Shown: positions 24,519-27,923, numbered from the stretch's first letter. The stretch is DNA of 64,000 bases from Clostridium sp. CAG:628 (GCA_000438415.1 FR902233.1:2366-66365), one strand, 5' to 3'. The notes: generated from the sequence alone by a model not told the origin. Translations and numbers: made by a program.

Positions 24519-24560
24519 AAAAAGTGTACTTATTATAGCACACTTTTCTAAATATTTCAA
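24519..24560 (-). promoter_or_regulatory. promoter with palindromic operator: TTGAAA-17-TGcTATAAT embedded in AAAGTGTgCT-ATAATA-AGtACACTTT (copy 1)
   Basis: The 28-mer AAAAAGTGTACTTATTATAGCACACTTT is identical to 27881-27908. In minus orientation the hairpin loop contains an extended -10. Confidence 0.5.
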
Positions 24561-24924
24561 ATTAATAGTTATAATTAAATTTTCTTAACAATTAGAATCA
24601 ATCTTTTAAATTTCCTATAGAAACAACATAAAATCCATCATCTCTTTTATAAGAATAAGTTGTCCCTGTAAATAGCATTAAAATTAAAGCTCACCACACT
24701 TTTCAATATCTATGCGTTTTGTAGATTTTAAAAGGTTTTTTGCTGCTTCATCAATATATGCAGAACCTAATTTAATTTCAACATCACCCATTATTTCCAT
24801 CAATTATCCCAATTCATTTTCAATTAATCTTGGTAAATATTTCATACTTTATTCTTTATTCAAAAAAAATATTAAACCATTTTTTATATAAAAAAAATTT
24901 ACATTTTGAGAAAAAAAGAAAGCC

Positions 24925-26682
24925 TTAACTTAAAGCTTTCTTAATATTATTTATAATATCATTAATATCTAATTCTTCACTAACAAACATATCTACATAA
25001 TCTATATTTTCATCATTACCTATAGCCATAATTTTAATATTACTAGATATATCTTCTTTTATAGTTCTAACTAACTCTTCTAGTTTAACATCACTAATAT
25101 ATTTATCAATAATTACAACATCATAGTCTACTCTCTTTAACTCTTTTATTGCTTCTACCCCATTACTAAAATCATTCACTTTTATTTCATACTTCATAAT
25201 ACTATTCTTTAAAAATGCTCTGATCATATTACTACTATGTATAATCATTATATTAACACTACTTAAATCTAACTTAGTACTAGTATCCACTAAACTCTCA
25301 TGAAGAAATACTTTAAACTCACTTCCTTTACCTAATTCTGAAGTAATACTTATATTTCCTCCGAGAATATTAACTAAATTTTTAGTGATAAATAATCCTA
25401 AGCCTAAACCTAAAGTATCACTATTCTTTTCTAACTTACCAAATTTATTAAATATTAAATCAATATTCTCTTCACTAATTCCTTTACCAGTATCCTTTAC
25501 TACTATTTCAATATCACACTTATCTTTCTTAACACTACTACTTACACTAACTTCTATTTTACCCTTATCAGTATATTTAATAGCATTGCTAAGTAAATTA
25601 CTAACTATTTGTTTAACTTTATCCTTGTCTCCGTAAACAACATCAGGTAACTCACTATAATTACTTACAATTTCTACATCTTTATTAGTAAGTCTCTTTT
25701 TATTTAAATTAATTATATCTTCTATAACCTCTTTAGGATTATACCCACTTATTAAAATATCCACATTTCCACTTTCAATTTGAGAAACATTAATTATTCC
25801 ATTACAAACATCTAACAAACTATTTGTAGAATTAACTAAACCATTAAGTACATCCTTACTTTCTTCACTCAAATTATCTTCCATTTCTATTACACTTGCA
25901 CATCCTATTATCTGATTCATAGGTGTTCTAATTTCATGTGACATACTCCTTAAAAATTCACTTTTAACCAAGTTGGCATTTTCTAAGTTGTCTTTAGCTA
26001 GCTCTAGTTCATTTATCAGTTTAATATCTGGATTTTCTATAGTAAAATACATTATAAAATTATCTATCGTTAACCCAATAGAAATAATTATTAAATAAGG
26101 ATTAACTGAAAACAATATAGCAATTAAAATAGCAGTAAAAATAATTACAAAAACTGGTAAATGTTTTATATTAATTTTCTTTAAGTTAAATAAAACAATT
26201 AACAAAGAAACTAAAATATAAAATAAACAAAATATAATTGATAATATAACCGCTTCTCCTTGTGCAGTTTGATGTATACTATCTTTAATAATTAAGTCAA
26301 TTTTAGAATTAAAAACCACTACAAACATTATAATATCCAAAACTATAACAGATGTACTAACCTTTTTTAATAACCTCTTAAATCTTTTTCTTTCTTTATA
26401 AGTTATAACAAAAATATATAACATTAATGAAGAAGACCAAATAATTAAAAACACATAATCAAGTTTGTTTAATAAGGAAACTAAACTAACATTATAATTA
26501 GTGTAATAATTATAAAACAAAAGGGATACTAAAGCACTATCCATTAAAATAGAAAAAATCATTAAAATATAAATACTATTTTCTAATAAATGTACTCTTT
26601 TCTTAGAAAAATAAATAACAAGCAAAACAAATGAAAGCAAAAACGCTGTCACTGGTAAATACAAATTTGGCACACTACCCAC
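24925..26682 (-). CDS. hybrid sensor histidine kinase (multi-TM sensor, HisKA, HATPase_c, C-terminal receiver)
   Basis: About 6 N-terminal TM helices, an H-box SHEIRTPMN, G1/G2 boxes (GKGISEE, GLGLGL) and a C-terminal REC-like DVVIID. The start is probably the GTG at 26682 or 26673. Confidence 0.8.
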   Translation of the reverse strand: MGSVPNLYLPVTAFLLSFVLLVIYFSKKRVHLLENSIYILMIFSILMDSALVSLLFYNYYTNYNVSLVSLLNKLDYVFLIIWSSSLMLYIFVITYKERKRFKRLLKKVSTSVIVLDIIMFVVVFNSKIDLIIKDSIHQTAQGEAVILSIIFCLFYILVSLLIVLFNLKKINIKHLPVFVIIFTAILIAILFSVNPYLIIISIGLTIDNFIMYFTIENPDIKLINELELAKDNLENANLVKSEFLRSMSHEIRTPMNQIIGCASVIEMEDNLSEESKDVLNGLVNSTNSLLDVCNGIINVSQIESGNVDILISGYNPKEVIEDIINLNKKRLTNKDVEIVSNYSELPDVVYGDKDKVKQIVSNLLSNAIKYTDKGKIEVSVSSSVKKDKCDIEIVVKDTGKGISEENIDLIFNKFGKLEKNSDTLGLGLGLFITKNLVNILGGNISITSELGKGSEFKVFLHESLVDTSTKLDLSSVNIMIIHSSNMIRAFLKNSIMKYEIKVNDFSNGVEAIKELKRVDYDVVIIDKYISDVKLEELVRTIKEDISSNIKIMAIGNDENIDYVDMFVSEELDINDIINNIKKALS

Positions 26683-26726
26683 TCCCTCTAACTTATCCTA
26701 AGTATATAACATAATAATGATTTTTG

Positions 26727-26758
26727 CAAGAAAAAAACACTATTTTTTTAGTGTTTTA
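26727..26758 (-). terminator. rho-independent terminator overlapping stop of LPLAT-like gene
   Basis: In minus orientation, AAAACACTA-AAAAAAA-TAGTGTTTT followed by TTTCTTG. A TTGCAA-16-TATATA promoter for the kinase gene follows. Confidence 0.5.
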
Positions 26759-27864
26759 CAAAATACTTCTTCTTCACTAACTATAAGTTTATCAGTACAT
26801 TCTGTTGTTTTTTCAGACTCTAAGTAAAAGTATGGAGTGGCTTTAATAGTCTCTTCTAAATATTTATCCCACTCTTCATATATTGAAGAAGAACACTCTT
26901 TAAAAGTATTATCAGGATGTTTACTAATCATATCAAATTTTTCAGTAGCCATAATGTCTCTAATTCTTTCAGTAACTACTTCCTTTTCTATAGTAGTCAT
27001 TCTTTGTAAATAATTTATAACCACTTTTAATACATGTTCATTTTCTTCATTAAGAAGACATTTTATATCATATACTACTTTTAAACACATACTACTTATT
27101 TGATTTAATAAATTATTAAAATCATTTTCATTCTGTTTATTATTTAATTCACTAACAATATTCTTAATATTAACCAACTCATTTTTAATACTTAAATATT
27201 GAACACCATCAAAAATTAATATATCATTTGCTTTATTAATATACTTATTTAATTTCTTAATAATTAAATCTATATCTTCTAAAGTAACATCATTAACATC
27301 AATTCCATCTAACATTCTTGAATAACACTTATTACCAACTTTATAAGTTATTATAGGTACAACTAGAGCATTATTTTCTTTAGCAATTTCATAAAATCCC
27401 CAATGCAAATTATACATTAATTTATTAGGTGATAAATTCCAAGTAGCTTCAGGAAATATTAAAATATTACTACCATACTCTATTACCTTATTCATCTTAC
27501 TTTTCATAGCATTTCTACTTTCTTTATCATATCTATCAACTAATTGAGAACCATATAACCATAAAAAGAAACCATCCAAAGTATTATAAAATAAGTCAAT
27601 ATTACCAACTACAAAGTATGCATTACATTTAGCAGTCAAAACAGTATTAACCGCGTCATCCTTAAATGAATGAGATGCAATATATATAACTGGTCTATCA
27701 GTTCCTTTAAATTCTTTCTTTTCAATTTCTAATTTTAACTTATTACTTAAAGCTAACATTTTCCATAGTAATGGTCTAATTTTATTTCTAACCATAACTC
27801 CATTCTTAGATATAGTATTTTCTGGATTATTATCACTCATATACTTTAAAAAACTATTATTCAT
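26740..27864 (-). CDS. LPLAT/PlsC-family acyltransferase-like protein with ~180-aa C-terminal extension
   Basis: HxxxxD (HSFKDD) and FPEATW motifs of lysophospholipid acyltransferases. Confidence 0.45.
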   Translation of the reverse strand: MNNSFLKYMSDNNPENTISKNGVMVRNKIRPLLWKMLALSNKLKLEIEKKEFKGTDRPVIYIASHSFKDDAVNTVLTAKCNAYFVVGNIDLFYNTLDGFFLWLYGSQLVDRYDKESRNAMKSKMNKVIEYGSNILIFPEATWNLSPNKLMYNLHWGFYEIAKENNALVVPIITYKVGNKCYSRMLDGIDVNDVTLEDIDLIIKKLNKYINKANDILIFDGVQYLSIKNELVNIKNIVSELNNKQNENDFNNLLNQISSMCLKVVYDIKCLLNEENEHVLKVVINYLQRMTTIEKEVVTERIRDIMATEKFDMISKHPDNTFKECSSSIYEEWDKYLEETIKATPYFYLESEKTTECTDKLIVSEEEVFCKTLKK

Positions 27865-27880
27865 AATTTTCCCCCTTAAT

Positions 27881-27923
27881 AAAAAGTGTACTTATTATAG
27901 CACACTTTAACTTATTATGCAAA
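27881..27923 (-). promoter_or_regulatory. promoter with palindromic operator: TTGCAT-17-TGcTATAAT in AAAGTGTgCT-ATAATA-AGtACACTTT (copy 2)
   Basis: Identical 28-mer to copy 1. It sits immediately before the GGGGG RBS of the LPLAT-like gene, and its -35 abuts the ABC-F stop codon. Confidence 0.5.

Follow-up and report, generated by a model that had tools for sequence, protein, structure and literature searches.

A 28-bp palindromic element, AAAAAGTGTACTTATTATAGCACACTTT, occurs twice in a 64,000-nucleotide stretch of DNA from Clostridium sp. CAG:628 (GCA_000438415.1 FR902233.1:2366-66365), a human-gut bacterium with a G+C content of about 25%; the whole 64-kb stretch is called the window here. 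We report that this element stands in a fixed register in front of genes in a clade of related low-GC gut Bacillota, 121 clade copies in total, and we consider it moderately probable that the element combines a sigma-A promoter with an operator overlapping it, through which a putative dimeric regulator would exert common control over cassettes that couple an enzyme to a sensor kinase. The sequence of the element, its register and distribution, its conservation profile, its target genes and its position at recombination junctions are direct observations. That the identical palindrome is present in duplicate had been claimed in an earlier note on this DNA, and the two exact matches were recovered at 24519-24546 and 27881-27908. 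No third match was present in the window with up to 3 mismatches allowed, and the expectation from 100 shuffles was 0.

Anatomy, distribution and conservation of the element

Written along the minus strand, on which all neighbouring genes are coded, the element is AAAGTGTGCT-ATAATA-AGTACACTTT. The inverted repeat pairs at 9 of 10 positions, with G facing T at the tenth (a G-U pair if transcribed into RNA), and an extended reading of the core gives an 11-6-11 dyad, AAAAGTGTGCT-ATAATA-AGTACACTTTT, spanning -22..+6. When inverted repeats of the form 10-6-10 with at least 9/10 positions paired and at least 3 G/C per arm were counted, the 64 kb contained five where about 1.4 were expected; the element copies account for two of them. 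The promoter features are the following.

27917..27923, minus strand: -35 block of copy 2, TTTGCAT (TTGCAT, 17-nt spacer), part of the clade-conserved AATTTGCAT block
27881..27908, minus strand: element copy 2, 28-bp core with flanking A/T; TGTGc-TATAAT with the -10 at 27899-27894 and the predicted +1 near 27887
27871..27877, minus strand: ribosome-binding site of copy 2, AAGGGGG, 6 nt before the ATG at 27864
24555..24560, minus strand: -35 hexamer of copy 1, TTGAAA, 17-nt spacer
24519..24546, minus strand: element copy 1, 28-bp core; -10 at 24537-24532 and predicted +1 near 24525
24508..24513, minus strand: ribosome-binding site of copy 1, GAGGGG
30689..30717, minus strand: promoter of a peptide gene, not a member of the set; TTTACA-17-TGTGcTATAAT, generic -16/-10 consensus only

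The arrangement described in the earlier note, with a -35 hexamer at 17 nt (TTGAAA and TTGCAT), an extended -10 in the loop and a G-rich ribosome-binding site, was confirmed from the sequence. TTGAAA-17-TGcTATAAT agrees with the promoter consensus at 11/12 positions and TTGCAT-17 (or TTTGCA-18)-TGcTATAAT at 10/12, and both have the hexamer spacing of 16-18 nt and the TG before a TATAAT-like hexamer that define an extended -10 sigma-A promoter. The start codons, ATG 24502 and ATG 27864, both lie 16 nt downstream of their 28-mer, and owing to this identical distance the two regions align without gaps over 84 nt, with 73% identity overall and 28/28 in the core. The -35 block of copy 2 begins 1 nt past the stop codon of a gene encoding an ABC-F ATPase, the 28-mer itself 16 nt past that stop.

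The genome-wide search proposed in the earlier note produced many further copies. A first scan of one genome per species with the 20-mer GTGTRCTATAATAAGYACAC found 15 loci in seven related low-GC metagenome-assembled genomes (MAGs), together with 3 extra matches by chance in high-GC genomes. After a metagenome scan the clade copies numbered 121, the window and all loci included, with 71 distinct 84-mers, at least 14 target families and at least nine carrier species; individual loci compared with the window are given L-numbers below. All 121 copies are directed at a gene lying downstream. In 102 cases (84%) the distance from the end of the copy to an ATG with a G-rich Shine-Dalgarno sequence is 20-24 nt, and a single MAG or sample has at least 3-5 copies with differing targets. 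Scores against a profile of the promoter module were bimodal, 43-54 bits for the copies and below 24 bits for all else, and an nhmmer profile run over 1.2 Mb of related DNA added only three one-mismatch variants and one dead copy. The 20-mer search thus pulls out members of the set nearly free of noise. A dispersed repeat resembling repetitive extragenic palindromes or miniature inverted-repeat transposable elements, the former having been named in the earlier note as the finding that would speak against it, is excluded, as all copies are positioned as promoters in a fixed register before genes and only two occur in 64 kb. A phage origin was also rejected; a scan of viral contigs gave 6 matches, all at unrelated loci with different flanks.

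Loci found through the acyltransferase protein of the window, with no DNA motif used, gave the same picture. The identical 28-mer precedes orthologues at 67% and 65% protein identity (L029, L031), and orthologues at 56%, 50%, 49% and 48% identity have ordinary promoters lacking the dyad. This distribution indicates that the element arose recently, as an innovation specific to the clade, and has been strongly maintained since. One distant homologue (P0077) lies in a polysaccharide gene context with no kinase and is uninformative. Literature searches by MAG name returned nothing and the clade is without a cultured member; for such a group the element gives a direct handle on a regulon.

Conservation was profiled over 67 unique sequences, in which -21 to -19 and +7 are the positions outside the conditioning of the search. 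The AAA at -21..-19 is 94-100% conserved, +7 is 84% conserved and the -35 block AATTTGCAT 79-99%; the spacer at -27..-22, which separates the -35 block from the core, is merely 34-69% conserved. The borders of the conserved block, -21..+7, match the borders of the 11-6-11 palindrome, and dyad symmetry is preserved at positions that RNA polymerase does not need, namely the AAA and the right arm at -5..+7. This coincidence is what a protein-binding site would predict. The sole common polymorphism of the core, T to C at -3 in 19% of the unique sequences, renders the palindrome perfect. Variants in the outer left arm are rare and are not compensated in the right arm, which argues against selection for a hairpin per se. 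In L013 the core is intact even though the cassette downstream has decayed (ATG to ATT, with a coding remnant of about 40 nt).

Parts of the element belong to a wider promoter type. GTGTGCTATAAT equals the Gram-positive -16/extended -10 consensus TRTGnTATAAT, and promoters with such a TRTGn-TATAAT "-16 region" go back to Voskuil and Chambliss, as cited in PMC6570832. The element has TGTGcTATAAT and the 17-nt spacer in common with them, whereas that consensus is without the conserved AAA (-21..-19) and AGTACACTTTT (-5..+6). The 20-mer is also found in unrelated organisms, including phage-like contigs with several repeated TTGACA-N17-TATAAT promoters in which aGTGTGCTATAATAAg is followed by varying sequence. 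On these comparisons the clade-specific parts are the AAA, the right arm AGTACACTTTT and the non-consensus -35 block AATTTGCAT. Four non-clade loci, partly viral (L139, L153, L050, L142), have several repeated, near-consensus cTTGACAaa-N8-aGTGTGCTATAATAAg promoters per contig, with the right arm of the element missing.

The earlier note had predicted co-regulation of the two target genes and, likely with them, of the peptide promoter. The former prediction is strengthened in that both genes belong to the same identically headed set, but the peptide promoter drops out: GTGTGCTATAAT is present at 30689-30700 with the right arm absent, and both this promoter and another at 53000, which likewise lacks the right arm, were rejected as members at about 8 bits each. 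The generic TRTGnTATAAT consensus explains the similarity of these two promoters to the element.

A single case of altered orientation was found at L098 (about 2840-2930, plus strand), where the asymmetric centre of the palindrome alone is inverted (GTGTACTTATTATAGCACAC) and the -35, leader, ribosome-binding site and gene flanks are normal. TGcTATAAT is thereby replaced by TATTAT without TGn; this looks like a hairpin-loop micro-inversion and would weaken the promoter.

Enzyme-kinase cassettes and recombination junctions

The first genes behind the 121 copies fall into 14 clusters, among them five AMP-binding families resembling long-chain-acyl-CoA ligases and three PF01553 acyltransferase families. 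Further targets are a 643-aa orphan, a 294-aa protein followed by SpoU and radical-SAM genes, an ALDH/nucleotidyltransferase fusion and an ABC-F protein, and HisS and ArgS genes are found behind a remnant or long leaders. About 80% of the targets are paralogous cassettes in which an acyl-AMP ligase or a PlsC-type acyltransferase is followed by a hybrid histidine kinase with six transmembrane (TM) helices; in nearly all ligase and acyltransferase cases this second gene is a paralogue of the hybrid kinase in the window, and in some cassettes HPt is added, either as a C-terminal domain or within an HPt-REC protein. The enzyme family and the family of the kinase N-terminal part (the TM sensor) correspond strictly 1:1 in eight pairs, while the kinase cores form a single cluster for all. 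What such a pair does, be it substrate sensing, membrane homeostasis or the synthesis and reception of a signal, is read from co-inheritance only and would fit any of the three. Several paralogous acyl-enzyme genes, each tied to a private membrane sensor kinase and all under one invariant promoter, make up an unexpected organisation. The findings suggest that gut Bacillota respond to fatty acids or lipids in a coordinated manner or use signals derived from lipids.

The genes associated with the two copies in the window are listed below.

26740..27864, minus strand: target gene 1, PlsC/LPLAT-type acyltransferase of 374 aa (PF01553), family "acylT360-374"
24925..26682, minus strand: hybrid histidine kinase, about 6 TM helices with HisKA, HATPase_c and REC domains; 57 nt after the acyltransferase gene and co-oriented with it
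24916..24942, minus strand: terminator-like hairpin (intrinsic type) and T-run 3' of the kinase gene, from a terminator scan
22571..24502, minus strand: target gene 2, 643-aa orphan protein with only 28 representatives among 1.84 billion clusters
20701..22535, minus strand: DAGK_cat/YegS-type lipid kinase (ATG 22520) and phosphatidylserine decarboxylase (PSD), from Pfam

Thus copy 2 is followed on the minus strand by the acyltransferase, the hybrid kinase, the terminator, a spacer of about 380 nt and copy 1, and copy 1 by the 643-aa orphan, the YegS/DAGK-type lipid kinase and the decarboxylase. The earlier note omitted the kinase between the copies, which is the conserved partner of element-driven enzymes, as well as the role of the element at recombination junctions. 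The N-terminal sensor part of this kinase (aa 1 to about 206, 26682-26064) moves with the acyltransferase gene as a single cassette. Compared with L023, at 92-93% DNA identity, homology of the window continues from the ABC-F gene across the element and 7 nt into the following open reading frame (ORF), breaks off there and restarts near residue 206 of the kinase; the kinase cores share 94% identity and the sensor domains are dissimilar. The non-homologous block between these points holds the acyltransferase and its sensor domain in the window and an AMP-ligase with another sensor domain in L023. Across the loci, one upstream context holds up to three different cassettes and one cassette sits in up to five contexts.

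In L059, a strain of the window's species (98.8% identical), the 3.36 kb between both copies is deleted and the junction lies within the 28-mer; this deletion is the only event with both ends in elements. The 643-aa gene and its element copy are missing in the sister genomes L011 and L023, and homologues of the protein at 31-35% identity have ordinary promoters without the element. Together these observations indicate that the 643-aa gene acquired the module by promoter capture. No tyrosine- or serine-type recombinase was found near the copies by a crude motif scan, which covered the ORFs in about 0.88 Mb of surrounding sequence from incomplete genomes. Since no recombinase was found there and the 3' breakpoints lie in conserved coding sequence, the rearrangements are attributed to homologous recombination between conserved segments and not to a dedicated site-specific system. 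Judged by these alignments, the element is the 5' junction in cassette replacement and a direct repeat in deletion, and it provides a natural example of a promoter core that is strongly selected yet used as a seam for cassette exchange and deletion.

At two loci (L013 5278-6785 and L039 1055-2910) HisS and ArgS genes are flanked by element copies on both sides, and the first copy in L013 is followed by the dead 5' remnant of an acyltransferase cassette. The long leader in L013 is this decayed cassette 5' end. T-boxes and riboswitches were considered for the leaders of 171, 69 and 75 nt in L013, L009 and L021 and rejected, with no Rfam match at gathering thresholds. At three further loci (L029 11066-13811, L031 11016-14376, L002 3297-6012) the acyltransferase-kinase cassette is followed on its 3' side by a 275-aa gene and by arrays in which paralogous small ORFs, about 111 and about 91 aa long, alternate. 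These ORFs and the 275-aa gene have no Pfam match, and ORF number differs among strains.

Proposed operator function and rival explanations

We propose that the 28-mer is the core of a sigma-A-type promoter module of about 70 bp. In this module a -35 block (AATTTGCAT or TTGAAA) would be set 17 nt from a TATAAT extended by TRTGn, transcription would start at an A 7 nt beyond the TATAAT, and a leader of about 25 nt would follow, with a G-rich Shine-Dalgarno sequence. The 11-6-11 dyad would be the binding site of a putative dimeric regulator whose binding would mask the -10 together with the start site, and all promoters carrying the dyad would thereby be repressed or gated in some other way. We infer promoter activity, the start site, and protein binding and its sign from sequence. 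The regulon would consist mainly of up to eight paralogous two-gene cassettes, each with a kinase sensor domain specific to the enzyme family; in the window the module would govern one cassette (acyltransferase and kinase) and one captured operon (643-aa orphan, lipid kinase and decarboxylase). The regulator would plausibly be either the phosphorelay output of the cassettes, acting in feedback, or a lipid-responsive repressor. As the core is identical everywhere, it would also offer a direct repeat for deletions and, paired with the conserved kinase core on the 3' side, a 5' homology arm when cassettes are replaced. For annotation, this groups the window acyltransferase, the kinase and the 643-aa/DAGK/PSD operon functionally and sets the cluster of peptide, ThiF-family and ABC-F genes apart as a separate, strain-variable unit.

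A dyad centred on the -10 and the start site is shared with repressor operators that overlie the -10 of sigma-70 or sigma-A promoters, such as LexA boxes and the FapR and FabT sites of Firmicutes, and regulons of this type likewise have several sites per genome before functionally related (lipid or acyl) genes. The near-total invariance of 28 bp is far stricter than in usual operator regulons. To our knowledge the module fits no operator consensus among those of FapR, FabT, Bacillus FadR, CIRCE, NrdR and Rex. Control by Spo0A was rejected, as the 0A box bound by that protein has the consensus TGTCGAA, which is absent from the module sequences. Spo0A and SpoIVB genes are found in related loci. 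Repressors of the YtrA-type GntR group typically recognize palindromes at least 24 bp long whose half-sites are distal (PMC6746942), and the element resembles their operators in its conserved distal half-sites (AGTGT...ACACT) with an A/T-rich centre between them. A YtrA-type GntR repressor may be taken as a lead only.

The dimer that the earlier note placed on the palindrome gains from the coincidence of the conserved block with the dyad (-21..+7), yet the operator is still a proposal to which several observations are unfavourable. No helix-turn-helix protein or DNA-binding response regulator was linked to the element by Pfam among the 50 window ORFs and the ORF clusters recurring near copies. 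Near-total invariance at 28 positions across species is unusual for operators and may reflect stacked constraints. Because they recur in unrelated phage and bacterial promoters, the left arm (for the most part; TGTGCT), the loop and AAG are ordinary strong-promoter sequence, for which the promoter consensus alone accounts. The housekeeping genes behind some copies (HisS, ArgS, SpoU-type methylase) would be awkward under tight repression, and the hairpin with its U-run might act as a terminator.

In a wider and rather doubtful extension of the operator reading, the element would act as a cis-switch shared by up to eight cognate enzyme-kinase pairs, which together would make up a multi-channel, lipid-based network for sensing or signalling in uncultured gut spore-formers. 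Each 6-TM kinase would sense the substrate or product of its enzyme, all pairs would feed an HPt relay, and the relay output would act back on all channels through the identical promoter-operator; promoter core and kinase core would double as homology arms, so that strains could swap specificity cassettes as agr groups do. In the hypervariable region of agr, AgrB/AgrD and the sensor half of AgrC form a synthase-receptor pair with swappable specificity. The CqsA-CqsS and LuxM-LuxN pairs of Vibrio and Legionella have hybrid kinases that feed an HPt protein (PMC3376566, PMC4398556), and the cassettes share with them an enzyme gene adjoining a multi-TM hybrid kinase, HPt or HPt-REC partners and several parallel channels per genome. 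Common to agr, Cqs and LuxMN-type pairs is also the co-inheritance of enzyme and sensor domain as a unit between a conserved promoter and the kinase core. The cassettes differ from the Cqs and LuxMN pairs in encoding AMP-forming ligases or PlsC-type acyltransferases, which are not known autoinducer synthases, and in having one promoter on all channels. The pairs could equally be DesK-type substrate-sensing or membrane-homeostasis modules.

The element could instead be a strong constitutive promoter cassette that is reused with no dedicated regulator and kept uniform through gene conversion, which we think unlikely. The module would then have been copied with duplicated genes or captured by others, and the dyad would be a by-product of a TRTGn -10 and a favoured initial transcribed sequence. 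Unrelated genes are known to share reused promoters: Nijveen, Matus-Garcia and van Passel screened the region -150..-50 for at least 80% identity over at least 50 nt and described putative mobile promoters (PMC3575422), which resemble the element in being highly similar upstream regions before non-homologous genes within and between genomes. The element differs in that its identity is that of a 28-bp core between flanks that have diverged (73% over 84 nt), in blockwise selection and in serving mostly one functional class. Against the threshold of that screen, whose -150..-50 frame is not applicable here, the window pair has 73% identity over 84 nt and a pair of adjacent promoters in L020 about 95% over 70 nt. 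Over approximately 70 nt these two L020 promoters resemble each other more closely than they resemble their orthologues in another genome, which points to local duplication or conversion. The recurrence of left arm, -10 and AAG in unrelated strong promoters, repeated phage promoters included, also agrees with reuse, as does the gain of the module by the 643-aa gene, whose distant homologues and sister species are without it. Recent copying would give uniform similarity, however, and not blockwise conservation with a variable spacer, and the core is invariant where flanking proteins are 65% identical between species. The conserved block also stops exactly at the palindrome ends, -21..-18 and -5..+7 being dispensable for sigma-A recognition, and we estimate the chance of a 9/10 complementary right arm at the fixed offset at about 3e-5. 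Plain promoter reuse would account for the spread of the module but not for its blockwise conservation.

Quite improbable is the view that the element is a terminator and promoter insulator, in which a hairpin and U5-6 in read-through RNA would stop transcription and the same DNA would restart it for the next cassette. The two copies give hairpins of -11.1 and -14.9 kcal/mol (z = -3.5 and -5.8) followed by 5-6 U, the flanks are a symmetric A-tract and T-tract, pairing is kept in the T-to-C variant, and the ABC-F gene has no other terminator before copy 2. Yet many copies lie directly behind a separate good terminator, for example that of the SpoIVB gene (L009, L013, L031) or of the histidine kinase gene (copy 1), and the terminator scan of the window did not list the element. 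There are zero compensatory changes in the 67 unique sequences, three natural one-base variants (L107, L111, L098) each break a pair without compensation, and the invariance is one of sequence beyond pairing. A secondary role as an intrinsic terminator is plausible at copy 2 (-11 kcal/mol, U5) but cannot explain the invariance.

Highly improbable, finally, is site-specific recombination. The dyad, with inverted arms of about 11 bp and a centre within the 6-8 bp usual for tyrosine-recombinase sites, would here be the core at which such an enzyme exchanges cassettes in the manner of an integron or shufflon, and a promoter split at the crossover would leave each product expressed. The 28-bp 11-6-11 dyad at rearrangement junctions recalls Xer/dif cores, whose arm and centre geometry it equals, and integron attC sites; the switch of flank type exactly at the core, the combinations of up to 3 cassettes per upstream context and up to 5 contexts per cassette, the L059 junction inside the 28-mer and the copy with only its asymmetric centre inverted would also fit. 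The element differs from those sites in having many copies per chromosome, all within promoters, with no recombinase in the scanned ORFs and with 3' junctions away from any site: the 3' breakpoint in the kinase core (about aa 206) has no second site and fits homologous recombination, L020 duplicates the entire 70-bp module and not only the core, and the insertion with the 643-aa gene has its border about 380 nt upstream of the element.

Genes and minor features of the window and related loci

For the 643-aa protein, Pfam and NCBIfam searches were without a match, two protein searches gave 22 and 28 relatives, and its AlphaFold model (pLDDT 62) had no PDB fold match with E<1. The lipid kinase and decarboxylase genes are probably co-transcribed with the 643-aa gene, given the gap of 50 nt and the decay of the promoter seen in sister species. 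The stretch of 380 nt upstream of copy 1 is kept in every strain carrying the 643-aa gene and contains a 38-aa ORF, MEIMGDVEIKLGSAYIDEAAKNLLKSTKRIDIEKCGEL, within 24590-24800 (minus strand). Its counterpart in the diverged locus L064 is about 56 aa, and it may be a decaying small gene. Adjoining the insertion that carried in the 643-aa gene, at about 24900-24915, is a single unit of ttttctcaaaatgtaaaaYgatt, which in the sister species L011 (3190-3310) is repeated five times in tandem between the kinase terminator and the lipid-kinase gene.

Upstream of copy 2, the minus-strand genes are, by Pfam and in order, PspC, Abi_2, an HtrA-like protease, a 21-aa ORF with its own promoter, a ThiF-family protein and the ABC-F ATPase. 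The 21-aa ORF, MKINVKKVTVAKFSCHVDQHC (about 30641-30576, minus strand), has a TRTGn promoter and a hairpin after it, and is followed in the cluster 27924-29585 / 29509-30717 by the ThiF-family and ABC-F genes. The ABC-F ATPase scores 360 bits, just below the 380-bit NCBI cutoff for "ribosomal protection-like ABC-F". By its gene content the cluster resembles a small one for a modified peptide that includes a gene for self-protection. Its presence varies between strains: L059 lacks it, and in L002 other small genes take its place.

Elsewhere in the window (159-1329, 6337-6642 and 49200-50859), the spore-coat genes CotJB, CotJC and CotF and a neighbourhood of ParA/ParB, SSB, S6 and YchF indicate a spore-forming member of the Bacillota and a position near the replication origin. 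Some related MAGs nevertheless carry the label "Tenericutes".

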